This document shows positions 30,331-61,790 of a stretch of DNA of 64,000 nt, piece by piece (the first letter of the stretch is position 1; every line of letters starts with the position of its first letter). Under the pieces are notes generated by a model, which worked only from the letters and a program-made list of their open reading frames with translations, did no database searches and was not told where the DNA came from. The position numbers and the translations under genes are program-made. The stretch comes from Candidatus Bathyarchaeia archaeon (lineage in GTDB: Archaea; Thermoproteota; Bathyarchaeia; Bathyarchaeales; Bathycorpusculaceae), in assembly GCA_049512075.1 (NCBI GenBank), contig JBEKXL010000001.1, positions 32,001 to 96,000 on the forward strand, read 5' to 3'.

Positions 30331-31314
30331 TCATCTCTTATTGTACAACCAGCAGGCAACCTTGTGGTTGTCGGCATCGACTTCCAGAAGCCGGGGCCTT
30401 TCCTTTCTGCATATCTCCATTGCATATTTGCAACGTGGATTGAACCTGCAACCGGGTGGAGGGTTAACGTAGTCTGGAATTCTTCCTGGGATACCTTCTG
30501 AAAATCCTTCCCCAGTCAACTTGGGAACAGATTTCAGGAGCCCTTGCGTGTAAGGATGCAGAGGGTTCGAGAACAATTTTCCTGTTTCTGAAGACTCTAT
30601 CATGTTTCCAGCGTACATGACATAAACAGTGTCGACCGTGTTTCTTATAGTCCCAAGTGCGTGGGATATCAGGATTATTGACAGGTTCTTCCTATTTACC
30701 AGGTCCTTCATAAGACGCAAAACTTGGTCTTGAATTGTTACGTCAAGGCTGGTGGTCGGCTCGTCAGCAATCAGAAGATCCTTTGCGGTGGCCAGCGACA
30801 TTGCTATGCAAACTCTCTGACGCATGCCGCCACTTAACTGAAAGGGGTAACTGTCAAGCACTCTTTCAGGATCCGGAAGTGAAACCTCCTTGAGAGCGTC
30901 TATGGATTTTTCACGAAGCAGTTTTTTTGTGGCTTTTTCGTGGTCAAAATTGCCTGAGTACTTTATCACGTCTCCGAGTATTTCTCCTACCTTGAATACC
31001 GGATTGAGGGCGGCAGTGGGATCTTGAAATATCATAGTAAGGTTTTTTCTTCTTATTTGGTTCAATTGTTTTTTGCCGATTTTCAGCATCTCGTGTCCTT
31101 GAAAACTTATTTCTCCGCCATCGATTACGGCGTTAGACGCCAGAATCCCAAGTATAGCCTTCATCGTGGTAGTCTTGCCGCAACCAGATTCGCCAATGAT
31201 CCCAACTTTCTCGCTCTTACGTAGGGCGAAGTCCACCCCGTTCAAGACATTCAGCTTGCCCAAGTACGTCTTGAAGCCTATGAAAAGGTTTCTCACTTCC
31301 AAGAAAGGCTCCGT
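30331..31314 (-). CDS. oppD: Oligopeptide ABC transporter ATPase; probable ACG start at 31314 (next canonical start TTG 31302)
   Basis: GESGCGKT, LSGGMRQR, DEPTT motifs; ACG-EPFLEVRNL lies 8 nt after GAGGAGG. Confidence 0.93.
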   Translation of the reverse strand, partial: TEPFLEVRNLFIGFKTYLGKLNVLNGVDFALRKSEKVGIIGESGCGKTTTMKAILGILASNAVIDGGEISFQGHEMLKIGKKQLNQIRRKNLTMIFQDPTAALNPVFKVGEILGDVIKYSGNFDHEKATKKLLREKSIDALKEVSLPDPERVLDSYPFQLSGGMRQRVCIAMSLATAKDLLIADEPTTSLDVTIQDQVLRLMKDLVNRKNLSIILISHALGTIRNTVDTVYVMYAGNMIESSETGKLFSNPLHPYTQGLLKSVPKLTGEGFSEGIPGRIPDYVNPPPGCRFNPRCKYAMEICRKERPRLLEVDADNHKVACWLYNKR

Positions 31315-32199
31315 CTATCTTGCCTCCTCAACGAAAATGTCTCGAATTCCATCTCCTAAAAGATTGAAGCCTAGAATTATGACGATGATTGCCACGGCGG
31401 GAAACATGCTTATCCACCACTGGCCAGGCAGAAAAATAGAACCCCCGGCGACCATTGTGCCGAGATCTGGTGTTGGAGGCTGAGCGCCCAAACCTACAAA
31501 GCTCAGTGCAGAGCCTAGGAGTATTACCCAGCCCACATCCAACGTTATCTTGGTCAGAATTGACCCGAGACAATTTGGAAGGATTTCGTTGAACATTATT
31601 CGGAAAGAATTTTCGCCCATGACTTCTGACGCTTGAACAAAGTATTCATTTCTCAAAGCTGATGCAGCGTTATATGTTAACCTTGTGTACCAAGGCCACC
31701 ACATCAGTGAGACAGCCATCATCGAGTTGAATGCGCTGGGGGTCAGCACGGAAGCTATTGACAAAGCCAGTATGAGTGGAGGGACGGCTATGAACACGTC
31801 TGATATTCTCATGACCAGCGTGTCGATCCATGAGCCCCTGTAGTATCCTGCGATTAAACCCAGTACTATCCCAGGCGGTACAACGAGTAGCAACACTACC
31901 CCAGCCATCATAAGCGAGTATTGAAACCCAAAGACAGTTCGGGTAAACACGTCCCTCCCCAGTTGATCAGTTCCAAACAGGTACTTCGAACTTGGAGGCA
32001 GGAACCTGTCCTGAAGATTCGTTTGCAAGCCAGCCTCGCGGGGGTAAGGGGTTATGTAAGGAGCTGCCAAGGCCAGAAATATGGCGGCTACAATTACAAC
32101 CAGCCCTACTAGAGACAATGGGCTCCTGGAGAATCTGAACCATTTTCTCTTAAGATCGTACCTTTTGGCTATTATCCTGATGCGTTCCACTATTTGCAC
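31315..32199 (-). CDS. oppC: Oligopeptide ABC transporter permease
   Basis: FGTDQLGRDV, LSFVGLG.QPP.PDLG and GFNLLGDG motifs. Confidence 0.93.
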   Translation of the reverse strand: MQIVERIRIIAKRYDLKRKWFRFSRSPLSLVGLVVIVAAIFLALAAPYITPYPREAGLQTNLQDRFLPPSSKYLFGTDQLGRDVFTRTVFGFQYSLMMAGVVLLLVVPPGIVLGLIAGYYRGSWIDTLVMRISDVFIAVPPLILALSIASVLTPSAFNSMMAVSLMWWPWYTRLTYNAASALRNEYFVQASEVMGENSFRIMFNEILPNCLGSILTKITLDVGWVILLGSALSFVGLGAQPPTPDLGTMVAGGSIFLPGQWWISMFPAVAIIVIILGFNLLGDGIRDIFVEEAR

Positions 32200-33224: not shown

Positions 33225-33493
33225 TGTCTGTCGGCACACCTCGCTGTTAATACATGCTGCAAAAGACTTTAAAAAGGCTTATTGTATCGGATGAAACTTT
33301 CATTTATCTAACTCCGCGACTTTCATCCCCCTGAACATGCATGGATTGCAAAATCCTTTGCACAGAACCATAGACTGATGATTCTGCTGATGATTCTTTT
33401 CTGTGATACCAGTAGCGCAAGGAGAACAAGCTTTTAATAGTACATAGGAAAAAACAGTGTGAAAGAGTAAACATAAAACCGGAGGAAAAAAGT

Positions 33494-35385: not shown

Positions 35386-36678
35386 ATAGATTTTTCTTTT
35401 CCTAGAGGCGACATTAGAGTCGTGCTTTATGTCCTGCTTTCTTCACTGGCTGCAAGAATCCTCCTATTTCCGGTACAGGGGTGTCTAGGCGACCTAGCAG
35501 CATTTGCATCGTGGTTCAACGCGGCTGCGGCACACGGACCACTCGTCTTCTATCAAGTTGTATACTGTGATTATCCCCCCTTCAACGTCTACATTTTTTG
35601 GCTTTTCGGCTCTTTCGCCAAACTGTTTTCGGTTTCTGCCTCACCAGCCCTAGTCTACATATTGAAGCTGCCTTCAACCCTTTTTGACACTGCAACAGCA
35701 GGTTTGATATTCGTCTTTCTTAGAAAAAGACTCAGCTTTAACTCCTCACTCTTGGCGACTTCCTTCTATGCGTTCAATCCTGCAATAATCTTCAACGGGT
35801 CAATCTGGGGGCAGTTCGACGCGATATACACGTTTTTTCTTGTAGCCTCACTCATACTCATTATCGACTCAAAACCAACGCTGTCAGCAGCGGCCTTCAC
35901 TGCCGCAGTACTGACCAAGCCGCAAAGTATCGCCTTGGCACCCTTGATAGTCTTTCTGTTAATAAAAAAGAAAAGCTGGAAGACTGTGGCGGCTTCTGTT
36001 GTTACATCAATAGCACTGATTTTCATGGTCTCGGTTCCCGTGAGCCTGAATAACCCAGCGAATTTCCTCGTGAGCATCTACCTTAAGGGCTACACGAGCT
36101 ATAGCGTCACTTCGGCGAACGCTTTCAACCTCTGGGCATTAGTCGGCCTTTGGAAGCCAGACGCCCAGACCTTTCTGTCGTTGGATCTTTTCAAGATAGG
36201 CTGGATCATGTTCGGTGCGCTGACGGTTTTTTCCTTGTTTTGCTTGTACAAGGCGTCTCACCGCGTGGAGAGGATTGGTCATACTTTTGAAGTCTCGGTG
36301 CTCTTCACTGCTTTTGTCCTCTTGTTCGGCTTCTTCATGCTTCCAACCAGGATTCATGAAAGATATTTATTCCCAGTCTTCAGCGTCCTAGCAATGATGC
36401 TACCCTTCGTAAAAGAGGCGAGACCACTCTACGGGATTTTGACTTTCACCTATTTTGCCAATTTGGCATATGTTCTTCCATTCCTCAATGCAGGCAACAG
36501 CCGCATACCTGACGGGGATCCTTTCATCTATGCCATAACTGCGATTAATCTGGCCGCTTTTGTTTACACGCTAACAGTAATCATCAGGAAGCCAAAGATA
36601 GTGAGCCCTCCGATTTCTAGCCAGGCATTCGAGAACGCAAAGCAATCAGTTGCGGGAGAATGTGGACCGCGATGCTGA
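35386..36678 (+). CDS. GT-C membrane glycosyltransferase (mannosyltransferase-like); start ATA 35386 or GTG 35422
   Basis: D...F..W, DYPP, FNPA.I..GSIWGQFD, KPQ, NAFNLW and HERYL motifs; many TM helices. Confidence 0.8.
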   Translation: MDFSFPRGDIRVVLYVLLSSLAARILLFPVQGCLGDLAAFASWFNAAAAHGPLVFYQVVYCDYPPFNVYIFWLFGSFAKLFSVSASPALVYILKLPSTLFDTATAGLIFVFLRKRLSFNSSLLATSFYAFNPAIIFNGSIWGQFDAIYTFFLVASLILIIDSKPTLSAAAFTAAVLTKPQSIALAPLIVFLLIKKKSWKTVAASVVTSIALIFMVSVPVSLNNPANFLVSIYLKGYTSYSVTSANAFNLWALVGLWKPDAQTFLSLDLFKIGWIMFGALTVFSLFCLYKASHRVERIGHTFEVSVLFTAFVLLFGFFMLPTRIHERYLFPVFSVLAMMLPFVKEARPLYGILTFTYFANLAYVLPFLNAGNSRIPDGDPFIYAITAINLAAFVYTLTVIIRKPKIVSPPISSQAFENAKQSVAGECGPRC

Positions 36679-38336: not shown

Positions 38337-38339
38337 GAG

Positions 38340-43485: not shown

Positions 43486-43487
43486 AT

Positions 43488-43903: not shown

Positions 43904-44920
43904 ATGAAGCTTTCTAACCTCCTTACAATCGTTGACCTCCACACAGCAGGTGAGCCGTTCAGAATAGTGACAAGCGGATTTCCTACAATTCGTGGCAAAA
44001 CAATGAAGGAAAAAAACGCCTATGCAGAAAAGAACCTTGAAGATATGCGAAGAATGGTTCTCTATGAACCCCGAGGACGCAGTACAATGTGCGGAGCGTT
44101 CCTCTTGGAGCCTACAGTTGCAGAGGCGGATGCGGGGGTCATATTCATGGAACCAATAGGCCTCGTCCCGATGTGCGGACACGGATCGATTGCGATAGCC
44201 AAATACTTGGTTGAAACTGGACGAGTGAAAGTAACGGAACCCGTAACCAAAATCAAACTAGACACTCATGCAGGACTGGTCAGCCTATCAGTGAGCGTCA
44301 AAGATGGAAAGGTCGGAGAGATAACACTGAGAAATGTCGAATCTTTCTCCTACCTTCGCGACGCCATGGTCCGCACTGAAAGATTCGGAAAAGTCAAGGT
44401 TGACATTGCCTACGGTGGCAGCTTATACGCGATAGTTTCAGCCAAAGATGTCGGACTTGAGATTGTTCCTGATGAAGCTGGAAAACTGCTTGAATACGGT
44501 GAAATCCTCAGGAAATCGATACAAGAACAGATAGAGATGAAGCATCCCAAGGACGCCAGTCTAGTGAAGGTTCTGTACGTTCAGTTCACTGGGCCTCCGA
44601 CGCATCCGAAAGCGGACATGAAGAATGTCGTTGTCGTGGCACCTACAGGCCTAGATCGTTCGCCATGCGGCACCGGAACGTCTGCAAGAATGGCAGACCT
44701 CTTCGCCAAGGGAAAGATGAAAGTTGGAGATGAGCTCGTGCATGAAAGCCTCATCGGCACGTTGTTTCGAGGCAGAATAGTCGGCGAAACCAGCGTGGGG
44801 GAATACCCCGCGATAATTCCAGAAGTCGCGGGCAACGCATACATAACAGGTTTTCAACAACTCGTGGCCGAGCCGGACGATCCTTTGAAAAAAGGCTTCT
44901 TACTATCGGAAACTTCGTAG
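43904..44920 (+). CDS. Proline racemase / hydroxyproline 2-epimerase (two-Cys type)
   Basis: DLHTAGEP.R, EPRG, MCGH and DRSPCGTGTSA motifs. Confidence 0.92.
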   Translation: MKLSNLLTIVDLHTAGEPFRIVTSGFPTIRGKTMKEKNAYAEKNLEDMRRMVLYEPRGRSTMCGAFLLEPTVAEADAGVIFMEPIGLVPMCGHGSIAIAKYLVETGRVKVTEPVTKIKLDTHAGLVSLSVSVKDGKVGEITLRNVESFSYLRDAMVRTERFGKVKVDIAYGGSLYAIVSAKDVGLEIVPDEAGKLLEYGEILRKSIQEQIEMKHPKDASLVKVLYVQFTGPPTHPKADMKNVVVVAPTGLDRSPCGTGTSARMADLFAKGKMKVGDELVHESLIGTLFRGRIVGETSVGEYPAIIPEVAGNAYITGFQQLVAEPDDPLKKGFLLSETS

Positions 44921-45011
44921 CCTTGAACATTCTGATTCCCAGGATCGACACCGACCAAGGTTAAGTAGTGCCGATGGCTAGATTAATGTGAGTCTACGAG
45001 GTTGAGGGAAC

Positions 45012-46241: not shown

Positions 46242-46711
46242 TCCGCGTGGGAAAAATCGTGATAAGATGCGTCCCGGTGTCGAAAGGCGTTTCAGAAGGA
46301 GAAGCTCTGGTAACGAGCCAGCCGATGTGTTTGTACGACTCGTTGGATCCTAAGTCTGGCCGCATCGTGAACAAGAGACATGAGCTGTATGGAGAATGTG
46401 TTTCTGGGAGAATTCTCTTCTTTCCCTACGGAATCGGCTCAAGCACGAGCGCCGCCACGATTCTTGAGGCCTCAAGATGTAAAAAAGCTCCAAACGCTAT
46501 AGTTAACCTAGAAACCGAGCCGATAATAGCTGTTGGCGCATTGTTGGCCGAGAGGCTTTATGGAAGGATAATTCCGATTGTTCACAGGCCAGAAATAGAC
46601 CCGGCAGAAGTGATTAAGCATCATTCTGTGAGAGTTAACGCCGACGTGGGCCTGATTGAAGTATTAGGACATGGTCGAGATGCAGCGCACGTTAAAGCGA
46701 ATAATGCATGA
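46238..46711 (+). CDS. Aconitase X swivel small subunit (DUF126)
   Basis: GEALV, DP.SG.I...HEL.G, G.GSS, AP.AI and E.IIAVGA motifs. Confidence 0.88.
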   Translation: MIRVGKIVIRCVPVSKGVSEGEALVTSQPMCLYDSLDPKSGRIVNKRHELYGECVSGRILFFPYGIGSSTSAATILEASRCKKAPNAIVNLETEPIIAVGALLAERLYGRIIPIVHRPEIDPAEVIKHHSVRVNADVGLIEVLGHGRDAAHVKANNA

Positions 46712-46783
46712 AATTGCAAAATCGGCGCACAACGTTTTTAAGAACTCTCGAGCTAGGTTTAATTAACAGGCGTTCTGGAAAAG

Positions 46784-47701
46784 GTGGAAAAGACCATCCA
46801 AAAAGGCATTGTTTTTGAAGTAAAAAGGTATGCCACGGACGATGGACCAGGCATACGTACGACCGTATTCTTCAAGGGATGCCCTCTGCGTTGCTGGTGG
46901 TGCCACAACCCCGAGGGCAAAAATTCGAAACCCGAGTTGATGTACAAACGGAACAGATGCAAAGGCTCGGGCGAATGTGTAAAAAACTGTCCAAAGAATG
47001 CAATCTCGAAAGGCGCTCAGTACGTGTCCATCAACAGAAAACTCTGCAACTTATGTGGAAAGTGTGCCCTAGCCTGTCCAAGCGATGCTCTAGTGCTAGT
47101 CGGCAGAGCAGCAAGAGCGGATGAGATGCTGAAGGAGATAGAAAAGGACGTGACCTTTTATGATGAGTCCGGCGGAGGCGTCACGTTCTCTGGTGGGGAA
47201 CCCCTCATGCAACCCGATTTCTTGGAAGCTCTACTTGAAGGTTGTAAGGAGAGAAACATTCGCACAGCCTTGGACACGTGTGGATATGCACCATGCGAAA
47301 CGGTGGATAGAATAAAGGACAAAGTTGATCTCTTTTTGTATGACATCAAGAGCATGGACGACCGGACGCATAGAAAGTACACGGGAGTGTCAAACAAACT
47401 CATCATTCAGAATTTCAAGAGATTAGCAGAGAATGGAAGCAGCATTTCGGTTCGCTTCCCCGTCATTCCGGGCGTCAACGACAACGCGGAAAACGTCACC
47501 AGGACAGGCGAGTTTGCACTTTCACTTGGCGTGAAGCAGGTGTGTCTTCTTCCTTATCACAGAGCAGGGATTGAAAAGTACAGAAGCCTGGACAAGACTT
47601 ACAGACTCGAGCATCTTCAATCTCCCTCAGACGAAAAAATGCAAATGATCAAGGAAAAACTTATCACACTCGGGTTAGACGTGAGAATAGGAGGAGGGTA
47701 A
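46784..47701 (+). CDS. Glycyl-radical enzyme activating enzyme (radical SAM with ferredoxin insert)
   Basis: DGPGIRT.VFFKGCPLRCWWCHNPEG, GGVTFSGGEP and LPYH motifs. Confidence 0.95.
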   Translation: MEKTIQKGIVFEVKRYATDDGPGIRTTVFFKGCPLRCWWCHNPEGKNSKPELMYKRNRCKGSGECVKNCPKNAISKGAQYVSINRKLCNLCGKCALACPSDALVLVGRAARADEMLKEIEKDVTFYDESGGGVTFSGGEPLMQPDFLEALLEGCKERNIRTALDTCGYAPCETVDRIKDKVDLFLYDIKSMDDRTHRKYTGVSNKLIIQNFKRLAENGSSISVRFPVIPGVNDNAENVTRTGEFALSLGVKQVCLLPYHRAGIEKYRSLDKTYRLEHLQSPSDEKMQMIKEKLITLGLDVRIGGG

Positions 47702-47702
47702 G

Positions 47703-50069
47703 ATGAAAGACAGGATTAGAAAGCTGAGAGAACGCAGCGTCAGCACTAAACCGTACATCACGCCGGAAAGGGCCGTTCTAATAACGGAGTTTTGCGCTGG
47801 CGAAGGGGCTAGTCAGTCAGCATCTACACCCGTGAAAAGAGCCCTTGCCCTGAAGTACTTGCTTGAACACAAGCAGATATTCATCGATGACGGTGAGCTC
47901 ATCGTTGGCGAGAGAGGACCTGCTCCGAAGGCCGTTCCCACTTACCCGGAGATATGTTGCCACAGCCTTCAAGATCTTGAAATTCTTAATTCGAGGAAGA
48001 AAACACCCTTTGCGGTGGATAAAGAAACGAGGAAAATATACGAAGACAATATCATACCTTTCTGGAAGGGTAAATCAATAAGGGAAATGATTTTTGGTCA
48101 AATGTCCAAAGAGTGGAAGCTCGCCTACGAAGCAGGAGTGTTCACAGAGTTTCTGGAGCAGAGAGCCCCAGGTCACACGGTTCTCGACGACAAAATCTAC
48201 CGGAAAGGCATGCTTGACTTCAAAAAGGACATTAAGAAGAGCATGCGAAGCCTCGATTTTCTGAATGATCCTGAAGCACTCAAGAAGATGGAAGAACTCA
48301 AGGCCATGGAAATCGCTGCAGACGCCTTGATCCGCTACGCCGAGCGACACGCCGGGAAGGCCAGAGAGATGGCAAAGAAGGAGAAAGACCCGACGAGAAG
48401 AAAAGAGCTTGAAAAGATAGCGGATGTCTGCTCTCACGTTCCGGCTAACGCGCCTCGCGACTTCTGGGAGGCTCTGCAGTACTATTGGTTTGTTCATCTA
48501 GGAGTCATATCGGAACTCAACCCGTGGGATTCATTCAACCCTGGCAGGCTTGATCAGCACCTGTATCCGTTCTACAAACGGGGCTTGGAGCAAGGCACGT
48601 TAACGAAAGAAGAAGCCAAAGAGCTTCTGGAATTGTTCTGGATAAAATTCAACAATCAACCGGCGCCGCCCAAGGTCGGCGTTACAGCGGAGGAGAGCAG
48701 CACCTACAATGATTTTGCTCTGATAAACGCGGGCGGCGTGAAAGCCGACGGCTCGGACGGCGTGAACGAGCTCTCGTACCTGATACTGGACGTTGTGGAG
48801 GAAATGAGGCTGATCCAGCCTGGCTCCATGGTTCAGATCAGCAAGAAAACTCCTGACAGTTTTGTGAAGAAGGCCGTGGAGGTCATAAGAGAAGGCTTCG
48901 GACAGCCCTCAGTCTTCAACACGGACGCAATAATTCAAGAACTCCTGCGGCAGGGAAAATCGATAGAGGACGCGAGAAACGGAGGAGCGAGCGGATGTGT
49001 GGAGGCGGGGGCTTTTGGAAAAGAAAGCTACATCCTCACTGGATACTTCAACCTCACTAAAATCTTAGAGATCGTCTTGAACAACGGTGTAGACCCAAGG
49101 ACGAAAAGAAAGATTGGCCTTGAAACCGGGGACCCTTCAGACTTCAGTTCTTTCGATGAACTCATCAACGCGTATGAGAAGCAACTAAACTACTTTGTCG
49201 ACGTCAAAATCAAGGGTAACAACATAATTGAGAGGCTGTACGCCGAGCATCTTCCAACGCCCTTCCTGTCACTCCTAATAAGCGATTGCGTGCAGAAAGG
49301 AAAAGACTACAGCGATGGCGGCGCCAGGTATAACACCAACTACATCCAGGGCGTAGGACTCGGAACGATAACTGATTCTTTGACAGCGATTAAACACAAG
49401 GTCTTTGACGAGAAAAACGTTAGGATGAAAGAGCTAGTCAATGCATTGCATGCCAACTTTGATGCGAACGAGAACCTTCGCCAAGTGCTTTTGAATAAGA
49501 CGCCTAAGTACGGCAACGACGACGATTATGCGGATGACATCATGAGAACTGTCTTTGAGATTTACTATCGTGCAGTGGATGGGAGGCCGAACACCAAGGG
49601 AGGCTATCACAGGATAAATCTTCTGCCGACCACGGTTCACGTTTACTTCGGGAAAGTGTTAGGCGCAACACCTGATGGGAGAAAAGCAGGTGAACCCGTT
49701 TCTGAGGGTGTGTCACCCGTCCAAGGAGCAGACAGGAAAGGTCCCACGGCAGTGATAAAGTCGGTTTCTAAGATAGATCATGTCAGAACAGGCGGGACTC
49801 TTCTCAACCAGAAATTTGCGCCAGAGCTGTTGGAAGACGAGCAGGGTATGGACAAGCTGGGCCACCTTATACGCACGTACTTCAAGCTTGACGGTCACCA
49901 CATCCAGTTTAACGTCATAAACGCGGAGACCTTGCGAGACGCACAGAAACATCCCGAGAAATACACGGATCTCCTAGTGAGAGTTGCAGGGTACAGCGAC
50001 TACTTCGTTGATTTGAGCACTGAACTTCAGAATGAGATTATTAAGAGAACGGAGCACAAATCGTTCTGA
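47703..50069 (+). CDS. hypD: trans-4-hydroxy-L-proline dehydratase (glycyl radical enzyme)
   Basis: EQRAPGHT, NPWDSF, EESSTYNDF, SGCVE, GYFN, LPTTVH and RVAGYS match the HypD active-site set. Confidence 0.92.
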   Translation: MKDRIRKLRERSVSTKPYITPERAVLITEFCAGEGASQSASTPVKRALALKYLLEHKQIFIDDGELIVGERGPAPKAVPTYPEICCHSLQDLEILNSRKKTPFAVDKETRKIYEDNIIPFWKGKSIREMIFGQMSKEWKLAYEAGVFTEFLEQRAPGHTVLDDKIYRKGMLDFKKDIKKSMRSLDFLNDPEALKKMEELKAMEIAADALIRYAERHAGKAREMAKKEKDPTRRKELEKIADVCSHVPANAPRDFWEALQYYWFVHLGVISELNPWDSFNPGRLDQHLYPFYKRGLEQGTLTKEEAKELLELFWIKFNNQPAPPKVGVTAEESSTYNDFALINAGGVKADGSDGVNELSYLILDVVEEMRLIQPGSMVQISKKTPDSFVKKAVEVIREGFGQPSVFNTDAIIQELLRQGKSIEDARNGGASGCVEAGAFGKESYILTGYFNLTKILEIVLNNGVDPRTKRKIGLETGDPSDFSSFDELINAYEKQLNYFVDVKIKGNNIIERLYAEHLPTPFLSLLISDCVQKGKDYSDGGARYNTNYIQGVGLGTITDSLTAIKHKVFDEKNVRMKELVNALHANFDANENLRQVLLNKTPKYGNDDDYADDIMRTVFEIYYRAVDGRPNTKGGYHRINLLPTTVHVYFGKVLGATPDGRKAGEPVSEGVSPVQGADRKGPTAVIKSVSKIDHVRTGGTLLNQKFAPELLEDEQGMDKLGHLIRTYFKLDGHHIQFNVINAETLRDAQKHPEKYTDLLVRVAGYSDYFVDLSTELQNEIIKRTEHKSF

Positions 50070-50109
50070 ACGGCAAGCCCAGAACGGCGCTAGCTAGATT
50101 GACAAGCGG

Positions 50110-51093
50110 CTAAATCTCGATTTCTTTTCCGATTCCTTCTTTCTTTGCTTTATCATATGCCAGTTTTGCTACGGCGGCATCTTCGAGGGCTAAGCCCACG
50201 GCTTTCCAACACGTTATTTCGGAGTCAGACATTCTTCCAGGTTTTTCGCCGCCGACTATTTCTTGAAGTTCAGCGTAGATATCATCCTGTGAAATTATTC
50301 CCTTCTTTATTGGGACAATAAGGTCTCCAGTTTCAGCAAGTGCGCCCTCTTTGGTGTCGACGACGATTTTTGCTTTCTTGACGGTTTTATCGTCCAGTTC
50401 TCCTCCCTCAGGTCCGACTACTCCGATGGAGTTTATGTGCGCACCCATCTTTATCCAATCTCCGTCCAACACTGCAACCTTCGACGTTGTGGCTAAAACT
50501 ATTACATCGGAGTTTTCAACGCACTGTTTGCTGGTTTGCACAGGCTTAACTGTTAGGCTCAGTTCTCGTGAGACACTTTCGGCAAATTCCTCCGCCCTCT
50601 TAGGTAAAATGTCGTACACCTTTATTCTTTGAATGTTTTCAAGAACCTCGCACAGCCCCCGAACCTGAGCTCTTGCCTGACCGCCAGTACCTATGACACC
50701 GATTAAGCTGGAGTCTTTTCGTGCAAGGTACTTGGTGGCAACCGCGCTTGCGGCACCCGTCCTAGTGGCGGTAATATACGCTCCATCCATCAGAGAAAGC
50801 AGTTTGCCGTTTTCTGGATGGTTCAAGAGAATTGAGGCTAGTATCGTTGGTAAACCATGCTTCAGGTTCCCCTCGTACTGAGTGACTATCTTGATTGCTA
50901 AGGATCCCGTGCGACTGAGGTATGCGGGCATATAATAAACGAAGCCTTCATGTTTGTCGACGCTGATGATCACGCGCTTCGGAACTACCGCCTTTCCTTC
51001 GTACAACTCGAGGAAGGCTTTCTCTACCACTTGGATAGCTTCCCTCATGCTGACCAAGGATTCAACATCGCTTCTGCTAAGAAACAGGACCAT
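50110..51093 (-). CDS. Ornithine cyclodeaminase/mu-crystallin family (probable pyrroline-2-carboxylate reductase or archaeal AlaDH)
   Basis: MPAY, IT..RTGAASAVA..YLAR, GTGGQA, HINSIG and GLALEDAA motifs. Confidence 0.88.
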   Translation of the reverse strand: MVLFLSRSDVESLVSMREAIQVVEKAFLELYEGKAVVPKRVIISVDKHEGFVYYMPAYLSRTGSLAIKIVTQYEGNLKHGLPTILASILLNHPENGKLLSLMDGAYITATRTGAASAVATKYLARKDSSLIGVIGTGGQARAQVRGLCEVLENIQRIKVYDILPKRAEEFAESVSRELSLTVKPVQTSKQCVENSDVIVLATTSKVAVLDGDWIKMGAHINSIGVVGPEGGELDDKTVKKAKIVVDTKEGALAETGDLIVPIKKGIISQDDIYAELQEIVGGEKPGRMSDSEITCWKAVGLALEDAAVAKLAYDKAKKEGIGKEIEI

Positions 51094-51212
51094 TTTACTT
51101 GCCTCAAACCTAAGGCATAACCTCCTCACTTAACTTTTCTCTCTTCCTCAAAGCTAGAAAAACAAACGCATTGGCGTCTAGAGCTTAAATCGCGCCGTGG
51201 AAAACATGGGCA

Positions 51213-52094
51213 TTAAGCGGATTGTGGGCTGGGGCAGGAGCGGTTTGTAGCAAGATTGGTTAAGTATACGCCTCCAAGGGTGAGCCCTGAGCCCAGAAGT
51301 AATTCGAGGTTGAAGGGCTCTTTGAGAAATATCCATCCGAATAGGAGGGCGACTGCGGGAACGAGCAGGGCGGAGCTTGAAAGAGTTGTTGCTTCTTCAT
51401 CTCTTAGCAGATGAAGCCAGAGTATGTTGCCGATACCCAACGCGCCCGCAGCTGAAAAGAGAATTAGTGCAGCGTACTGCGGACTCATAGGAAACGCAAG
51501 ACTGTTCATACCTAAACTTAGAGTGATGAAGAGAACTGAACCGATGGCCAATTGCAGGAAGACTCCTATGAAAGGATCTGCGTGACATAGAAACTTCTTA
51601 TAGTAGACAACCGAGATTCCCCAGAAGAGAGCAGATAAGATCAGGATTAGAGTTGACCCGAGAGTGAAAGAGCCTGTTTTGTTGAGGAAGAGGATGGCGA
51701 CTCCGGTGAACCCTATGGCAGCTCCTAGTATCTTGCTGGCTGTGATTTTCTCTTTTAGGAATGGTGCTGCTAGGCACAGGACGAAGAGTGGTTGAGTGTA
51801 AAGGATTACCGCACTGATGCCTGAGCTCCCGCCAGCAAGCCCGAAGATCTGTCCTGCGTTTACCGCGGTATAGATGAGACCGTAGACTGTCAGTCCGCCC
51901 AGAGTTCCCAGATCTCGGGGCAATCTCTTGCGGAGTATGAGAAAAACTGGAAGGAGAACAGCAACGGAAATCACGAATCGGTGCAGAAGCAGCGTTGAAG
52001 GCGAAACGGAATTCAAAGCTATCTTCATCACAGAATAGTTCGATCCCCAAAGAACGACTAAAGCTATGAAAAGCGGCACGTTATGCAACTTCAG
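51213..52094 (-). CDS. EamA/DMT family transporter (start CTG 52094 or TTG 52088)
   Basis: LWGSN, P..L..HRF, TQP.F and LKE motifs; about 10 TM helices. Confidence 0.88.
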   Translation of the reverse strand: MKLHNVPLFIALVVLWGSNYSVMKIALNSVSPSTLLLHRFVISVAVLLPVFLILRKRLPRDLGTLGGLTVYGLIYTAVNAGQIFGLAGGSSGISAVILYTQPLFVLCLAAPFLKEKITASKILGAAIGFTGVAILFLNKTGSFTLGSTLILILSALFWGISVVYYKKFLCHADPFIGVFLQLAIGSVLFITLSLGMNSLAFPMSPQYAALILFSAAGALGIGNILWLHLLRDEEATTLSSSALLVPAVALLFGWIFLKEPFNLELLLGSGLTLGGVYLTNLATNRSCPSPQSA

Positions 52095-52316
52095 ACAGCC
52101 TTGCCTCCCAGCACGGATGTCTTCTAAAATGCACTGTAATATAAAAATCACATGGCAAAGTCCATCGTGGCACAATTCTGGATTCAGCGCGTTACAAAGA
52201 TATTGACGCGCAGTTACAAGCTCAGGTCTGAACTGATTCTTCTCAATTGGAGAAGGATGTGATTACGAGTTCAAATTCCGATGAAATCGTTATTTGTGCG
52301 ACAGAAGAGGGCACTC

Positions 52317-52682
52317 TCAGTCCGTTCTCTTTTGTTTCTTTTTGTAGCGTCTTCGTATTTTTTCTGCAAGCTTGCCGTCCTCCACTATTAAGGCACCCTG
52401 ATAGCCACAGTTAAGGCATTTCCAGATGGAAGGGCGATAGAAGATGAGAAAGTTGATGTTGGTGGAACCGCATTTTGGACAGAACTTTATTCTGCTCATG
52501 ATTTCTTCTTGTTCTTTTAATTTAACTACAGACTTTTTGAGGCTCCACTTCTCTTTCAATATGTTGCCGAACTCGGTGAAATTTAACCCTTTAGCTTCCT
52601 CCCCACACAGCGGACAATGCTGCCCCCGCTCGAGCTGCTTATCATACACACACTTAGGATTTGGGCAAGTCCATGATGGCAT
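52317..52682 (-). CDS. Small protein with two Zn-ribbon modules
   Basis: CPNPKC..CPLCG and FCPKCGS..WKCLNCGY motifs. Confidence 0.75.
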   Translation of the reverse strand: MPSWTCPNPKCVYDKQLERGQHCPLCGEEAKGLNFTEFGNILKEKWSLKKSVVKLKEQEEIMSRIKFCPKCGSTNINFLIFYRPSIWKCLNCGYQGALIVEDGKLAEKIRRRYKKKQKRTD

Positions 52683-54442: not shown

Positions 54443-54494
54443 CGCGAGAGTGCGCTTCATGCAACACGAACAAGGATGGAAAAAAGGGAAAAAG

Positions 54495-55631: not shown

Positions 55632-55632
55632 A

Positions 55633-56466
55633 ATGTCTGGGGTGTTCTCGTCTCGCAAGTACATGAGGGATTTGAAGCTGCCGTTCTGTCCGGGCTGCGG
55701 GTTGTTTTCGCTCGGCGACGCTTTCCTGAGGGCTGTGCATGAGCTGGGCCATGAAGACTTGAGCGGGTTTTGTTTCGCCAGTGGAATAGGCTGTTCTTCT
55801 TGGATTCCTTCGCCGTATTTTCTCGCAGATTCAGTTCACACCCTTCACGGCAGAAGTATACCAGTTGCGACAAGCATCAAGCTCGTGCGTCCGGACCTAA
55901 GCGTAGTCGTGTTCGGCGGGGACGGAGACATCGTGGGCATCGGATTGAGCCACTTTGTACACGCTGCGAGACGCAACACGGACATACTCGTCATAATGGG
56001 CAACAACATGGTTTACGGCATGACAGGCGGGCAAGTAGCGCCTACAACACCGTTCAAGACTAGGACAACAACCACTCCCTACGGAAGCTTTGAACACCCA
56101 TTGGATGCTGCAAGACTCGCAGTCGGCGCTGGAGCAGCATATTCTGCGCGTTGGACTACTGCACACTTGAAAGAATTGAAAGAATCAATCAAGAGCGCGC
56201 TCCAGATGCCGGGCTTCAAGTTCATCGAGGTTGTAACTCACTGTTATACAGCGTACGGCAGAAGAGCCGGCTTCAAGGACACAGGAGAGATGCTAAAGTA
56301 CTACAGAGAAAACGCTGTCGCAGCACAGCAGGCTGAGAAAATGAGCGAAGAAGAGCTTGAGGGGAAAATAGTTATCGGAGAATTCGTGCGGAGAAAGCGT
56401 CCGACACTCGTGGAGACGGTTTACGCCATGATTGAGGGGGCAAAGGCAAGTGGCGAACAAGACTGA
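55633..56466 (+). CDS. korB: 2-oxoacid:ferredoxin oxidoreductase beta subunit
   Basis: FCPGCG, SGIGCS, HTLHGR, GGDGD and YGMTGGQ.APTT motifs. Confidence 0.93.
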   Translation: MSGVFSSRKYMRDLKLPFCPGCGLFSLGDAFLRAVHELGHEDLSGFCFASGIGCSSWIPSPYFLADSVHTLHGRSIPVATSIKLVRPDLSVVVFGGDGDIVGIGLSHFVHAARRNTDILVIMGNNMVYGMTGGQVAPTTPFKTRTTTTPYGSFEHPLDAARLAVGAGAAYSARWTTAHLKELKESIKSALQMPGFKFIEVVTHCYTAYGRRAGFKDTGEMLKYYRENAVAAQQAEKMSEEELEGKIVIGEFVRRKRPTLVETVYAMIEGAKASGEQD

Positions 56467-56983
56467 AATAAGATTCGGGGGCAGCGGCGGACAGGGCGTT
56501 GTGTTAGCCGCGCAGATCCTTGGAAAAGCCGCGGTTCTGGATGGAAGGAACGCTTTGCAAACACAAGCCTACGGAGCCGAGTCCAGAGGAAGCATGGCCA
56601 GGAGCGAAGTCATCATATCAGACGGCAAAATAGGCTTCCCAGCCGTTAGAAAATGCGACATACTCGTAGCCATGAACCAAGAATCTCTCAACGCGCTAAT
56701 CAAGGATGTGAAAGAAAACGGAATGCTCATGGTGGACAGCACTAACGTAACAGACATACCTCAAACAAAAGTTCAAGTCCACAGGATTGCAATCACGGAA
56801 ACTGCCAAGAAAGCATTTGGGGAAGCATTCTATGCAAACATGATTATGCTTGGAGCCTTCACAAAAATAGCCAACCTCGTGAGCAGAGAAGCGATGGAAA
56901 AGACAATCAGAGAAAACGTTTCGAATAAAACCATTGAAAACAACATCAAAGCCTTCCAGAAAGGCCTAGAACTAAACCATTAA
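56450..56983 (+). CDS. korC: 2-oxoacid:ferredoxin oxidoreductase gamma subunit
   Basis: GSGGQG, YGAESRG and NMIMLGA motifs. Confidence 0.92.
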   Translation: MANKTEIRFGGSGGQGVVLAAQILGKAAVLDGRNALQTQAYGAESRGSMARSEVIISDGKIGFPAVRKCDILVAMNQESLNALIKDVKENGMLMVDSTNVTDIPQTKVQVHRIAITETAKKAFGEAFYANMIMLGAFTKIANLVSREAMEKTIRENVSNKTIENNIKAFQKGLELNH

Positions 56984-57072
56984 AGATCGAAGACTCCTCG
57001 CAGAAGAATTGAGACACATAAAGAAAACTCGCTACACCGTGGCATCTGCGCGCGCCTTGCAAGAAGCGCGTT

Positions 57073-57252
57073 CTAGATTCTCAGAAACGCAGTTTTCCAT
57101 GTTGCCGATGACGTGAGCAGGCGGCGCGCGCGCTTTTCCGGCGACAGTTTTTTAGGCCCAAAATATGCGTCGACGATGCTGATCCCCGTGACTTTCTTCG
57201 TGAAATTGCCGATTTGCATGAGCAGTTTCAAGTAATCTTCGCCCAAAGCCAT
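57073..57252 (-). pseudogene. Probable truncated gene (59-aa N-terminal fragment)
   Basis: MALGEDYLKLLMQIG...IVDAYFGP, degrading at a (GC)5 run. Confidence 0.4.
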
Positions 57253-57353
57253 GACGTTGCCTCAAGCAGGTCGATTGCCTAGGTGAATATAAAACAGTTT
57301 AGCGGACTCGCACAATGTTTTTATCCTTCCAAAAAAGTAGTAACGCGAGGTTT

Positions 57354-58352
57354 ATGTCAGACATAATCACTGTCAACAACCTTGTCATGGTGTACTCCGA
57401 CGGGACAAAGGCTGTTGACAATATTTCCTTCAACGTTAAGGAAGGCGAATTCTTCGGGTTTCTGGGTCCCAACGGAGCCGGAAAAAGCACAACGATCAAG
57501 ATTCTTACAACGCTCCTGAGAAAAACATCCGGTTCGGCCATCGTGGCAGGCCATGACCTTGACAAGGAGTCCGAGGAGATTCGAAAGCTCATCGGCGTGC
57601 AGAGCCAAGACACAGCTGTCGACGGAGACCTCACCGGCAGGGAGAATCTAATGCTTCAAGGTCATTTTCAACAGTTGCCCAGCCCCGAACTTAAGCAACG
57701 CGTGAACGAACTCTTGAAACTCGTGGAACTCGAAGACGCCGCGGACAAGCGTGCAAGAAACTATTCAGGCGGCATGAAGAAGAGGCTTGACCTCGCTACG
57801 GCCCTCGTCCACAGGCCGAGGTTGCTCTTCCTGGATGAGCCGACGACGGGCCTAGATCCTCAATCGCGCGCCGCGATATGGGCTTACCTTGAGAAGCTAA
57901 ACAAGAAAGAAGGCACCACCATATTTTTGACGACACAATACATGGAAGAGGCCGATAAACTCTGTCGGCAACTATCGATAATCGATTTCGGAAAGATAGT
58001 CGCCAGCGGGTCTCCAGCTGAGCTTAAACGCCAGGTCGGAGCCGACTCCATTAAACTATCACTTGAGAATTGTGCTAGGGATAAACCGAGCGCAAAGGAT
58101 ATCGTTAGCAGCCTTGAAGGCGTGACAAACGTGATCGATTCTGATGAGTGCTTGACCGTGTACGCGAAGAACGCGGGACTCATCATCGCCGACATCGTTA
58201 GAGCGTTTGACAGCAGAGGCATTCGGCTATCATCGGTCAGCTTTTCGTCGCCGACTCTTGATGACATCTTTCTGCAACACACGGGAAGGAGAATAAGGGC
58301 TGAGGAGCTTGTCAAGACCCCAAGCGCCATGCTTGGCGGAAGGAGGCGATAG
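57354..58352 (+). CDS. DrrA-like ABC exporter ATPase
   Basis: GPNGAGKST, YSGGMKKRL, DEPTTGLDP and PTLDDIFL motifs. Confidence 0.93.
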   Translation: MSDIITVNNLVMVYSDGTKAVDNISFNVKEGEFFGFLGPNGAGKSTTIKILTTLLRKTSGSAIVAGHDLDKESEEIRKLIGVQSQDTAVDGDLTGRENLMLQGHFQQLPSPELKQRVNELLKLVELEDAADKRARNYSGGMKKRLDLATALVHRPRLLFLDEPTTGLDPQSRAAIWAYLEKLNKKEGTTIFLTTQYMEEADKLCRQLSIIDFGKIVASGSPAELKRQVGADSIKLSLENCARDKPSAKDIVSSLEGVTNVIDSDECLTVYAKNAGLIIADIVRAFDSRGIRLSSVSFSSPTLDDIFLQHTGRRIRAEELVKTPSAMLGGRRR

Positions 58353-58355
58353 AAT

Positions 58356-59135
58356 ACGACTCTTTTCTCTGACACCAGATACCTCTTCGTTAGGTACTTG
58401 AAGAAACTCGTCAGAAACCCCATTCTGCTCTTCTTCTCGCTCTTTCAACCCATAATATTCCTGCTCCTTTTCACGCAGTTGTTCTCGAAGTTCTCTTCCT
58501 TGCCGGGGTTTCTCCAAGCCACTGGCGCCAGCAGCTATCTTGAGTTCGCCACTGCCGGCATCCTCCTCCAAAACGCTTTCGGCAGTGCCTTGCAATCGGG
58601 AACATCAATAGTGCTTGATCTGGATACGGGATATTTGCAGAAAATGCTCGTGACGCCAGTCAGCAGATATGCGATATTGCTGGGAAGATTGACTAGTGAC
58701 GCTTTCAGAGTCGTGGTTCAGTCGACAATCATCCTGGTGCTTGCCTATGCCTTGGGCGCCACAGTATCAACAGGGATTGTGGGAATACTGCTCATGCTTT
58801 TCACTGTAGCCTTCTTCGGCCTCGCTTGGTCTGGAATTTCCCTGGCCATAGGGTTGAAGACAAGATCCTCTGAGACAGTGTTTGCGATAGGCGGATTCAT
58901 TACTTTTCCGTTGCTGTTCTTGAGCACGGCTCTGACTCCGAGGGTCTTTATGCCCGATTGGATATTGGACGTCTCGAACTTCAACCCCATAAGCTACACC
59001 GTGGACGCGGCCCGGGCGCTCATGGTCACTGGATACGATTGGGGCACGGTGCTCAAAGCGTTCGGCGTGATTGGGCTTATCGCAGCTGTCACTTTAGGAG
59101 CGACGCTGTACCAGTTCAGGAAGGTAGTTAGCTAG
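58356..59135 (+). CDS. ABC-2 type permease (DrrB-like); probable ACG start
   Basis: (M)TLFSDTRYLFVRYLKKLVRNP, D..TG...K.LVTP and NPISY.VDA.R motifs; AGGAGG 9 nt before ACG. Confidence 0.9.
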   Translation, partial: TTLFSDTRYLFVRYLKKLVRNPILLFFSLFQPIIFLLLFTQLFSKFSSLPGFLQATGASSYLEFATAGILLQNAFGSALQSGTSIVLDLDTGYLQKMLVTPVSRYAILLGRLTSDAFRVVVQSTIILVLAYALGATVSTGIVGILLMLFTVAFFGLAWSGISLAIGLKTRSSETVFAIGGFITFPLLFLSTALTPRVFMPDWILDVSNFNPISYTVDAARALMVTGYDWGTVLKAFGVIGLIAAVTLGATLYQFRKVVS

Positions 59136-59454
59136 TTGAGAAGCGCGATTGAGATTTTTGGAATCTAACGGCGTGAAAATTTGGTTTTGCCCCGTGTGGT
59201 TTTCCCACATAGCTACTATGCGTAGAGAAAAACAGAGATGGATTACGCGTCCCCTGTGATCAGGAGCTGAAGTGAATTGGATTTGCTTGCCCGCGCAAGA
59301 CTTTGAGATATTCTATAGAGTTGAAGAAAACTGGTTCGGTACGCGAGGGGTTTTGAATACCATGAAACAGGATAAGTGCATGCTTGCAAATGCAAGTGAA
59401 CAAATTTGGCTGGCTTTAAATAGTTGAATCTCACTAAGTTAATTATGGGGAACA

Positions 59455-59661
59455 TTGTTGGAAATACAACATCGTTGCTTCAACGAGTTCCCACATCAAT
59501 GCACAGAATGTCCAAAATACAGCGAATCACTTGCCGATCCAACTTTGCAACTCGCCCTGCTGACAGGTATTGGCGGCCTACCATACCCACGGCAATACAG
59601 AAGAAGGGTTACCAAAGAATGCAAACTATATCACAAGCGCAAAGTCGAATATTCAGATTAA
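59455..59661 (+). CDS. Possible small Cys-containing protein
   Basis: 68-aa ORF with CTEC plus two more Cys, followed by a T-rich tract; no family recognised. Confidence 0.3.
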   Translation: MLEIQHRCFNEFPHQCTECPKYSESLADPTLQLALLTGIGGLPYPRQYRRRVTKECKLYHKRKVEYSD

Positions 59662-59937
59662 TGAAAAATCTCCCATAAACGACAATTGCGGGGAATCTGC
59701 GTTATTTCCCATTTTTGTCCGAGTGTTTTTTTTTCTTCTTTTTAACATTCTTCTTTTTCTCGATAGGGTGCGTATAGCGCGCGCAGGAGTGACAGAAATC
59801 GGGCCGAATAGCGGTAAGAAAAGCTCAGTTTGAGGTTTTCTGGAAACCGACGGAGTGGTCGAAGTGCTTTCAGCATTACCGCGTGCTATGACGTGTGTCG
59901 GATGAGTGGAAGCACTTGTTTGCAGAAGTGTAGGGTG

Positions 59938-60612
59938 TTAGTCTTCTGCTTTTAACCTGCCATCCTGCATGGTGTACACCTTGTCTGTGACGTCGATTAT
60001 TTTTTCGTCGTGTGTTGCGACGACCACCATGGTCTTCTCAATTTCGTTCACGTCCTGAAGTAGAATGATTATTTCCCTGGCCGTCCTCGAGTCTAGCTCT
60101 CCTGTAGGCTCGTCGGCGACTATTACCTCCGGGTTGTTTGCGAGAGCCCTCGCGATAGCCACCCGCTGCATCTCACCCATGCTCAACTGTTTCGGCCTGT
60201 GATCACGCCTGTTTGAAAGCCCTAGTCTCTCAAGAAGCTTCAGCGCCTTCTCCTCTTGCACTTCCTGAGACTTATTGGCCAGTGACATGGGCAGCTCAAC
60301 GTTCTCCAGTGCGGTCAGCGTGGGAAAAAGGTTGAAGGTTTGAAATATGAAGCCCATGCGCGTGTTACGGATCCTTCTGCGTTCGCGACCGGACAGCTGC
60401 GAAGCATCAGCATCGTCGACGAAGATGTTTCCCGAGGTCGGATAATCATTCAATCCCATCAGGTTGAGCAGTGTCGATTTGCCTGACCCTGAGGGGCCGA
60501 TGACAGCGAAGAGTTTTGGCTCTTTGAGCTCTAGGTTGACCGCTTTGACGGCTGCTATTTCTGATGAACCCACCCGGAACGTTCTTGTCAGGTTCACTGT
60601 TCGGATATTCAT
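59938..60612 (-). CDS. MacB/LolD-type ABC ATPase
   Basis: GPSGSGKST, GFIFQ.FNL, LS.GE.QRVAIARA and DEPTGELD motifs. Confidence 0.93.
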   Translation of the reverse strand: MNIRTVNLTRTFRVGSSEIAAVKAVNLELKEPKLFAVIGPSGSGKSTLLNLMGLNDYPTSGNIFVDDADASQLSGRERRRIRNTRMGFIFQTFNLFPTLTALENVELPMSLANKSQEVQEEKALKLLERLGLSNRRDHRPKQLSMGEMQRVAIARALANNPEVIVADEPTGELDSRTAREIIILLQDVNEIEKTMVVVATHDEKIIDVTDKVYTMQDGRLKAED

Positions 60613-61790
60613 CAGTATTCAGCTCTTAAGACTTCAGCTATGTGCATCCTCATAGCGTTTACCGCAGGGATTATTCCGCCGAGGCAGCAGATGCCCACGA
60701 TGGCCGTGAACATTTCCAGCATGTAGACTGGCGGAACGATTTCCAGCACGCTGGGAAAGAACAGGGTCACAGGAATGCTAGTGTAGAAACTTGCTAACAT
60801 GAGGGCTGTCAGCGAGCCGAAGGCTACCCCGATTATGCCGCCGAGGACACCTATGAGGAGGGTCTCGATGACTACTACTCTGAATATATAGCTCATCGGC
60901 GCTCCAATCGCGTCCAATGTTGCGAAGTCACGACGCCTCTCTGACACGCTCATGACAGTGACTGTCATGACGAGTATCAGGCTCATGACAAAGACTACCG
61001 CTTCAATGCCTAATGTCCAAGTCTGCACCTGATCTAGGACGGGTTGGACGATGTCGTTTCTTTCAGTTTCTGTCAAGGCGCTGACGTAGCCTATTCGCTG
61101 CTTTATGGCCGTGGTCAGGTTTTGCTGTGCTATGTTTTGAAGCGGTTTTACCGCGATTATGTTTACGCTCTGCGGATAATTGTAGATGGTCTGCGCCAGT
61201 GTGAGGGGCATGACTAGGCAGCGGTTCAGCAAGGCCATTTTCGTGTCGAAGACGCCTGAAACATGCAGGGTGTAGCCGTTTACTCGGATGTCTATGCCCA
61301 CGGTCCAGTTGTACTGGTCAGCGATAGAGGCGCCTGCAACGATTTCGTTGCTCGAATCATTTGCTGGAAAATGGCCACTCGGCCTCAGTGGTATGGGTCC
61401 GAGGACGAGCCCCCAATCGTCAACTGGTATGCCCATCGTGAAGTTCACTGGGACTGCCTGAACCATTCCCTGTGATCCGACAGACGTAACGAAGAGGACC
61501 GGAGTCACAGTGGCCACCCCTGAGATGTTCACTAGTTCTTTCACTGTGGAATCTTCAGGCAGCATACCCCCGCTGATAGGTATTGCCTGAACTACAATGG
61601 CGTCCTTGCTTACCACGGTTACTTGACCGTTGAAGAGCACGTTCATTTCCCGTATCACCGTTGCATACCGCATGGTGGTGGCGCCGACGGCGATGACGAA
61701 AGTTGCTGCGATTGCCACTCCCAGAATGCACAGGAATGTTCTGATTTTTCTGCGGAAAAGGTTTCTGAAGCAGAATGTCAGCAGTCGCGT
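60612..61790 (-). CDS. MacB/FtsX-type ABC permease; probable ACG start
   Basis: (M)RLLTFCFRNLFRRKIRTFL..LGVAI, SVSERRRDFATL.AIGA and PA..A.......LR.E motifs. Confidence 0.9.
   Translation of the reverse strand, partial: TRLLTFCFRNLFRRKIRTFLCILGVAIAATFVIAVGATTMRYATVIREMNVLFNGQVTVVSKDAIVVQAIPISGGMLPEDSTVKELVNISGVATVTPVLFVTSVGSQGMVQAVPVNFTMGIPVDDWGLVLGPIPLRPSGHFPANDSSNEIVAGASIADQYNWTVGIDIRVNGYTLHVSGVFDTKMALLNRCLVMPLTLAQTIYNYPQSVNIIAVKPLQNIAQQNLTTAIKQRIGYVSALTETERNDIVQPVLDQVQTWTLGIEAVVFVMSLILVMTVTVMSVSERRRDFATLDAIGAPMSYIFRVVVIETLLIGVLGGIIGVAFGSLTALMLASFYTSIPVTLFFPSVLEIVPPVYMLEMFTAIVGICCLGGIIPAVNAMRMHIAEVLRAEY

Follow-up and report, generated by a model that had tools for sequence, protein, structure and literature searches.

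Introduction

Eukaryotic and viral translation can begin at the near-cognate codons ACG and CUG, e.g., in VP2 of adeno-associated virus and C' of Sendai virus, whereas plant chloroplasts and mitochondria create AUG starts from ACG by C-to-U RNA editing. In bacteria, an AUU start serves the autoregulation of infC. Translation table 11 of NCBI admits TTG, CTG, ATT, ATC, ATA, ATG and GTG as starts—a set that includes CTG and leaves out ACG. For archaea, one review lists AUG, GUG and UUG only, and describes the archaeal factors aIF1 and aIF2 as homologues of eukaryotic eIF1 and eIF2 (PMC4705826). Here we analyze ACG codons that occupy the expected start position of four genes, each behind a Shine-Dalgarno (SD) motif, in a 64,000-nucleotide stretch of DNA (the window; positions 32001-96000 of contig C1) from a Bathyarchaeia genome, G000, together with further genes of the same genome, among them hflX, dnaG and rpoK. 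Sequence comparison makes initiation at ACG very likely in this Bathyarchaeia archaeon. We consider it probable, in addition, that ACG is a genuine start codon in G000 and in those genomes of its order that were sampled, read as a near-cognate codon by the ordinary initiator tRNA.

These starts resemble the eukaryotic near-cognate ones in lying one base from AUG, in being presumably read by the normal initiator methionyl (Met)-tRNA and in involving both ACG and CUG. They differ from the eukaryotic and viral cases in that the ribosome would be placed by an SD motif instead of by scanning, and in that ACG appears to be the only start that the housekeeping genes hflX, dnaG and rpoK have, not an additional one further upstream, and is conserved across an order. 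As in plant organelles, genomic ACG at the start position alternates with ATG between relatives; unlike the organellar sites, those described here share the SD motif only. The parallel with bacterial infC-type starts lies in a weak start codon apparently kept by selection behind a good SD motif, although nothing here demonstrates an autoregulatory loop. A further likeness is to the usual GUG and UUG starts of archaea, which are SD-led and often located in operons; the positions analyzed here switch among ATG, GTG, TTG, CTG and ACG. Near-cognate initiation as such is known; its SD-led, archaeal form, conserved in core genes, appears to be new. The first-pass annotation of the window had remarked that it knew of no description of such starts in archaea, which agrees with our searches of the searchable full-text literature: judged from the search listings, no description of ACG starts in archaea was found.

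ACG codons at the start of four window genes

The source genome G000 is a draft of 2.73 Mb in 86 contigs, with 47.5% G+C and an estimated completeness of 99.76%. Its nearest public relatives are metagenome-assembled genomes titled Candidatus Bathyarchaeia archaeon, and the window stretch is present in contigs of public metagenomes from peat, wetland and sediment (20 runs, all DNA). Throughout, ATG, GTG and TTG are termed canonical starts. Four genes of the window had been reported to carry ACG 7-9 nucleotides (nt) past an SD motif, with an in-frame stop 1-13 codons upstream and no canonical codon in between; all four ACG codons lie at the positions given below, and the upstream stop and the lack of an intervening canonical codon hold for each.

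30331-31314, minus strand: oppD-type ABC ATPase; ACG at 31314-31312, SD motif GAGGAGG at 31329-31323, 8 nt upstream
45012-46241, plus strand: AcnX-type large subunit (predicted aconitase / hydroxyproline dehydratase family); ACG at 45012-45014, SD motif GAGGT at 44998-45002, 9 nt spacing
58356-59135, plus strand: ABC-2 type permease; ACG at 58356-58358, SD motif AGGAGG at 58341-58346, 9 nt spacing
60612-61790, minus strand: MacB/FtsX-type permease; ACG at 61790-61788, SD-like GAGGG at 61802-61798, 7 nt spacing

The next canonical codon downstream is a TTG after 4 codons in oppD, an ATG after 9 in AcnX, a TTG after 14 in the ABC-2 gene and a GTG after 24 in the MacB-like gene. Orthologues were sought in 40 genomes (4 of the same genus, 20 more of the family and 16 more of the order), and the homologous start codon position across orthologous loci is called the start column; these relatives are not independent of one another, and the tallies that follow are counts and not a statistical test.

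In the MacB-like gene, the start column reads ACG in 10, ATG in 3 and GTG in 1 of 14 orthologues (a 15th locus, a paralogue with 27% identity, was excluded). Nine of the ten ACG loci lack any canonical codon from the upstream stop to ACG—in G000, this stop is a TAG located 13 codons upstream—and the gene heads its transcription unit, with a divergent gene starting at 61838 on the plus strand. In the ABC-2 gene, 10 of 30 loci were read and 7 proved to be orthologues, the other 20 loci being distant paralogues; the column is ACG in G000, G002 and G021 and ATG in G004, G040, G003 and G020. The upstream gene stops one codon before the start column in all seven orthologues, giving the context TAG-AAT-ACG in G000, where the TAG at 58350-58352 closes the upstream ATPase gene. 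Position 1 of the TIGR01247 profile aligns to residue 13 of the permease as counted from ACG.

For AcnX, the in-frame TGA at 45003-45005 lies three codons upstream of ACG. In a first survey, in which 15 of 26 loci were readable and counted, ACG was found in G000, G003 and G022 and ATG in the other 12; a second survey of 18 loci gave ATG 14, TTG 3 and ACG 1. The orthologue of G003, a congener of G000, shares 84% identity, and ACG appears independently in a homologue from G022, which belongs to another genus. The public protein collection contains AcnX as a 400-residue form starting from the ATG at codon 10, the 409-residue form being absent; one member of the 90%-identity cluster is nonetheless 409 residues long and begins with MFLTREEE, which places a canonical start at the ACG column. 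Even when all table 11 starts are allowed, the open reading frame (ORF) is called from 45039. As a separate observation, an AcnX paralogue in G001, a congener (contig C6, positions 76682-77833), was matched in three pieces, two of which contain 3 and 2 in-frame TGA codons, respectively; either gene breakage or recoding may account for this.

The oppD codon abuts an in-frame TAG (31317-31315), the stop of the preceding oppC permease gene. Positions 2-313 of the NCBIfam OppD profile NF007010 align to residues 5-323. Three of 30 loci were orthologous, the remainder being paralogues of at most 43% identity, and ATG stands at the start column in G003 (90% identity) and near the column in G004 (a 65% orthologue).

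Taken across the window genes, ACG alternates only with ATG, GTG or TTG in separately assembled relatives, a point for which the first-pass annotation had proposed an alignment of orthologues. The start columns of the MacB-like, ABC-2, AcnX and oppD genes, together with those of dnaG, rpoK and the near-fixed hflX, support the central claim of that annotation, namely initiation at ACG in this lineage.

Conservation of ACG in hflX, dnaG and rpoK

The strongest conservation was observed in hflX, which encodes a ribosome-splitting GTPase. Its start column carries ACG in 28 of 30 loci, and nine additional genomes of the order, 8 of which have it, bring the count to 36 of 39, with GGAGG situated 8-10 nt upstream; in none of these 39 genomes is the column ATG or any other canonical codon. 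An in-frame stop lies 0-16 codons upstream in 20 of the 28 ACG loci, and 27 of the 28 contain no canonical codon between that upstream stop and ACG. Among the orthologues, the first canonical codon after ACG lies anywhere from 3 to 114 codons downstream, and the peptide KAIIVQRR, encoded by codons +1 to +8, is kept despite synonymous changes. Position 5 of TIGR03156 aligns to residue 6 of HflX. The near-fixation of ACG in the absence of ATG suggests selection for the codon rather than mere tolerance of it. Outside the order, the column reads TTG, CTG, CTG, ATG and ATG in five genomes from two other families of the class. Other classes of the phylum contributed 26 loci, of which 12 have TTG, GTG or ATG and 14 were not reliably alignable; no ACG was seen there. 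In this sample, in which few genomes come from outside the order, the hflX ACG is a trait of one order.

We also observed CTG at the hflX start column behind GGTGG in G042 and G153 (loci L282 and L283), which belong to another order of the class; a GTG follows five codons downstream. These CTG codons may represent another near-cognate start outside the order.

In dnaG, the column is ACG in 23 and ATG in 7 of 30 loci, behind GGAGGTG; G003 has ATG and its congeners have ACG. Position 1 of NF003108 aligns to residue 10 of DnaG, and the next canonical codon is residue 28. This gene also offers an internal control. Codon +5 is ACG in 12, ACC in 5, ACA in 4 and ACT in 1 of the same 30 loci, and codon +7 is ACC in 17, ACG in 6, ACA in 3 and ACT in 3, whereas ACG and ATG are the sole codons at the start column, ACA, ACC and ACT being absent from it. 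Since true threonine columns drift among synonyms and the start column does not, ACG appears to be read here as a start and not as a threonine codon; ACG makes up 27% of the threonine codons in G000.

A further core gene was found 4 kb past the window end:

G000, contig C1, 100043-100297, plus strand: rpoK (RNA polymerase subunit K), ACG start; loci L373-L402

In 27 of 30 genomes of the order, rpoK has ACG at this column, in most cases with a single codon between it and the stop of the upstream gene. Of the other three loci, one has ATG, another has ACC together with a GTG located three codons before it, and the last has neither.

Genome-wide association of ACG with SD motifs

The first-pass annotation had proposed a genome-wide count of SD + ACG at homologous start positions. 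We scanned 2619 non-overlapping G000 ORFs of at least 100 codons, examining every in-frame codon of the leader, meaning all codons that follow the upstream stop and precede the first canonical codon. The SD consensus, AGGAGGTGATC, was assumed and not read from the 16S rRNA of G000. ACG proved to be the leader codon most often located behind a correctly spaced SD motif: simple motifs preceded 17 of 330 ACG codons versus 503 of 25207 codons overall, and the excess persisted for SD matches of at least 5 nt (21 of 359 versus 703 of 27103, or 2.6%; binomial p = 5.6e-4) and of at least 6 nt (10 of 359 versus 168 of 27103; p = 1e-4). ACG stands above background behind SD motifs. No SD-linked excess was found in the same scan for ACA, ACC, ACT, ATA, ATT or ATC, and CTG was marginal (7 of 429 behind a 6-mer SD, p = 0.019, uncorrected for 61 codons). 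Such an SD motif is carried by only about 16% of first-ATG codons, and the SD + ACG excess, amounting to some 8-12 genes, is a floor only if ACG starts are no more SD-dependent than ATG starts. Ten SD + ACG candidates were compared with family profiles, which supported ACG in three cases (HflX, DnaG and an AAA_28 ATPase); the other seven are considered below.

The tallies from two genome comparisons were discarded as statistics. Against 800 kb of G003, leaders are conserved within the genus, and alignment ends do not mark starts; in the same pair, a tally of the first canonical codon against its partner codon amounted to noise (one ACG/ATG pair each way). A count of extra-start codons against 1.2 Mb of the family-level relative G012 was dominated by common conserved codons (AAA 52, ACG 16) and antisense shadow ORFs. 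The G012 comparison was retained for single cases only—the CTG starts of rpoE' and of a MinD-like ATPase, rpoK and the gene at C5:124132.

Other candidate ACG and CTG starts

Further candidates in G000, within and beyond the window, are listed below.

Window, 35386-35388, plus strand: ATA behind GAGGGAG in a membrane protein gene; ATA and SD motif kept in G003
Window, 52092-52094, minus strand: CTG behind GGGAGG in an EamA-like transporter gene; TTG two codons downstream
Contig C2, 4321-4935, plus strand: rpoE' (RNA polymerase subunit E'), CTG behind GGGAGG; loci L403-L432
Contig C28, minus strand, CTG at plus-strand position 10462: MinD/ParA-like ATPase (LKISVAGKGGVGKT...), CTG start
Contig C5, minus strand, ACG at plus-strand position 124132: 393-residue protein (TYKTLEVLGPEHEF...), ACG also in G012 at the same column
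Contig C2, 166029-166679, plus strand: AAA_28 P-loop ATPase, SD + ACG
Contig C2, 96468-98132, plus strand: secreted protein, SD + ACG, signal peptide beginning at ACG

The rpoE' column reads ATG in 11, TTG in 10, CTG in 8 (G000 included) and GTG in 1 of 30 loci; in G000, profile position 1 falls on the CTG, and the next canonical codon lies 84 codons downstream. The MinD/ParA-like ATPase has CTG in G000 and G003 and GTG in G012, its next canonical codon in G000 being about 43 codons after CTG, behind the P-loop. In the C5:124132 gene, a TAG closes the frame 6-7 codons upstream of ACG in G000 as well as in G012, and no canonical codon follows for 15 codons downstream in G000. For the AAA_28 ATPase, profile position 3 aligns to residue 6 and the next canonical codon is located behind the P-loop. 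Neither this gene nor that of the secreted protein has an orthologue in the 40 relatives, and SD placement together with domain logic is what suggests their putative ACG starts. The two remaining window candidates leave room for canonical starts: the ATA gene has an in-frame TTG upstream at 35200 and a GTG 12 codons downstream, and the EamA-like gene has no orthologue in the compared part of G003. Four other genes that we examined in G000, cofE (three paralogues), scpB, nadX and cdhD, offer a canonical codon at the expected start or close to it and are not ACG-start genes in this genome.

A model for the recognition of ACG

In the mechanism that we propose, GGAGG(TG) of the SD leader would pair with the 3' end of the 16S rRNA and place the small subunit, upon which the codon 7-10 nt downstream would occupy the P site. 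ACG differs from AUG at the middle base alone, and the ordinary initiator Met-tRNA (anticodon CAU) would accept it with a single C-A mismatch at that position. The protein would then begin with Met where relatives encode ATG, and CTG would be used likewise in a few genes. A lower initiation rate at ACG may give low or regulated output, which would fit hflX.

The tRNA complement of G000 agrees with this scheme. The sole initiator-type tRNA, encoded at C1:200381-200480 on the plus strand, has an A1-U72 pair, an anticodon stem with three G-C pairs and the anticodon CAT. Anticodon CGT belongs to an ordinary elongator tRNA (G1-C72, without the three G-C pairs of the initiator anticodon stem), and no second initiator-like tRNA sequence was found in the 86-contig draft. 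The aIF1 gene is present and normal, with an ATG start. As regards gene structure, the initiator tRNA gene is interrupted by a 21-nt intron directly behind position 37 of the anticodon loop, and its CCA end is encoded. The program aragorn called 29 tRNAs in G000 when introns were disallowed, with no tRNA-Met among them; allowing introns raised the number to 44.

Weighing the alternatives

Several observations weigh against the model proposed above. Among the ten SD + ACG candidates, two fit a canonical start better (GcvPB, ATG at residue 7; ThiD/ThiN, GTG at residue 7), and in five the profiles favoured neither start. The ACG of oppD is seen in G000 alone, and the TTG at codon 5 also gives a family-typical N-terminus, the OppD profile being matched from position 2; from the sequence, either ACG or the TTG four codons downstream may be the start in G000. 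In the MacB-like gene of G003, a TTG lies two codons upstream of ACG. In Saccharolobus, aIF1 is reported to reject AUU (PMC4705826), so that archaeal initiation is not generally lax. An in-frame canonical codon stands between the upstream stop and ACG in 12 of the 23 dnaG ACG loci, and in three dnaG loci (L189, L191 and L193) an ATG lies two codons upstream of ACG. The three hflX exceptions (L154, L162 and L280, the last from G084) carry ACA, ACC or ACT at the column; the ACA is preceded in frame by CTG and the ACC by ATA, and G084 reads TAG ACT AGG ACT AAG, with no start-like codon—columns that are not explained by one-mismatch decoding. Moreover, the alternation of genomic ACG with genomic ATG is the very pattern of edited plant organelle starts.

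C-to-U editing of the mRNA, turning ACG into AUG before translation as in those organelles, is nevertheless unlikely. Plant-type editing needs a site-specific element for each site, whereas the sites found here share no upstream sequence but the SD motif, and at least eight genes of one genome would need to be edited. To our knowledge, mRNA C-to-U editing is not known in archaea; the DYW deaminase domain (PF14432) gave no match in G000, in a search whose control matched in none of 14 genomes. If translation began instead at the next canonical codon downstream, the ACG stretch would be an untranslated leader and this lineage would make shorter proteins. This is what gene callers report and what the 400-residue AcnX entry reflects, and the loss relative to family profiles would be small for oppD (TTG, 4 codons) and the ABC-2 gene (TTG, 14 codons). 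We judge this highly improbable, given that the codons from ACG up to the following canonical one change synonymously while their peptide is conserved, and match the HflX, DnaG and AAA_28 profiles, including the P-loop; that the distance to that canonical codon varies so widely among hflX orthologues; and that the ATG of relatives falls exactly at the ACG column.

Termination-reinitiation without a strict codon requirement, with ACG being incidental, draws on the spacing of 0 or 1 codon (0 or 3 nt) after the upstream stop in oppD (TAG-ACG), the ABC-2 gene (TAG-AAT-ACG) and most rpoK loci. Translational coupling may indeed assist these three genes; it is not the whole story, because the MacB-like gene comes first in its unit and AcnX begins about 90 nt past the end of the preceding ORF at 44920. 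An irrelevant codon would also be expected to vary, whereas the column stays at ACG or a canonical codon over order-level divergence, and coupling may help without replacing codon recognition; reinitiation of this kind is therefore very unlikely. A dedicated initiator tRNA with the anticodon CGU could have been missed in an 86-contig draft with only 44 tRNAs called. It would have to be sought in a genome estimated as 99.76% complete, in which the sole CGT tRNA is elongator-like and no second initiator-like sequence was found. ACG and ATG, furthermore, swap freely between close relatives, for which one tRNA reading both is the simpler explanation, making a dedicated tRNA extremely unlikely. Hardly any weight remains for sequencing or assembly error, or for start-codon loss in decaying genes, in spite of the oppD case, where the nearest orthologue has ATG. 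Contigs from two other runs, X4 and X5 (neither flagged as a possible source), show 0 differences over 44500-52560, 55989-58496 and 59464-62400, which covers three of the four codons (AcnX, ABC-2 and MacB-like), the agreement resting on contigs of these runs and not on reads; the divergent runs X7 and X9 were left out as evidence. The same ACG codons occur in separately assembled genomes of many genera, which adds to the confirmation of the C itself that the first-pass annotation had proposed. Its own caveat, independent ATG-to-ACG mutations in a decaying region, does not hold: the genes are intact, the peptides after ACG are conserved and ACG is kept across the order. The matches to these genes in G000 span the full query length without internal stops, as do close orthologues of AcnX, hflX, the ABC-2 gene and the MacB-like gene; an in-frame TAA occurs in one distant orthologue of dnaG (G006). 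Upstream of ACG, the frames are closed by stops whose distance varies.

Two further candidates were rejected. A methylation-motif or context artefact was set aside after a by-eye check, the bases flanking the ACG codons being different. Fusion with the upstream gene by stop-codon read-through, considered for oppD, the ABC-2 gene and rpoK, was dismissed because rpoK and the end of the gene preceding it are in different frames in G000, G002 and G003; the upstream stops also vary among TAG, TAA and TGA between genomes.

Implications

Initiation at ACG has practical consequences for annotation. Gene finders restricted to ATG, GTG and TTG, or allowing all table 11 starts, shorten these proteins; the called forms would lose 9 residues in AcnX, 31 in HflX, 27 in DnaG and 17 in the AAA-ATPase, including its P-loop. 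Such truncations pass into censuses, structure predictions and the expression of Bathyarchaeia proteins. The use of ACG as the sole start of core genes would mean that an SD-led archaeal ribosome can use a codon with a middle-position mismatch, and would make this lineage a natural setting in which to study the control of start-codon stringency by aIF1 and aIF2. The restriction of the hflX ACG to one order, in the sample examined, would date the change and provide a marker for the group.

A bolder and more tentative idea, which we regard as possible though doubtful, is that ACG, and to a lesser degree CUG, acts as a selected regulatory start signal in this order, with the output of hflX, dnaG and rpoK tied to start-codon stringency through aIF1 activity or stress. 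It is suggested because these three genes keep ACG over order-level divergence, with ATG in 0 of 39 genomes for hflX. If true, regulatory ACG would be the archaeal counterpart of the infC AUU start and of the eIF1 poor-context feedback loops, and the start repertoire of this archaeal lineage would stand nearer to the eukaryotic near-cognate hierarchy than to the bacterial one.

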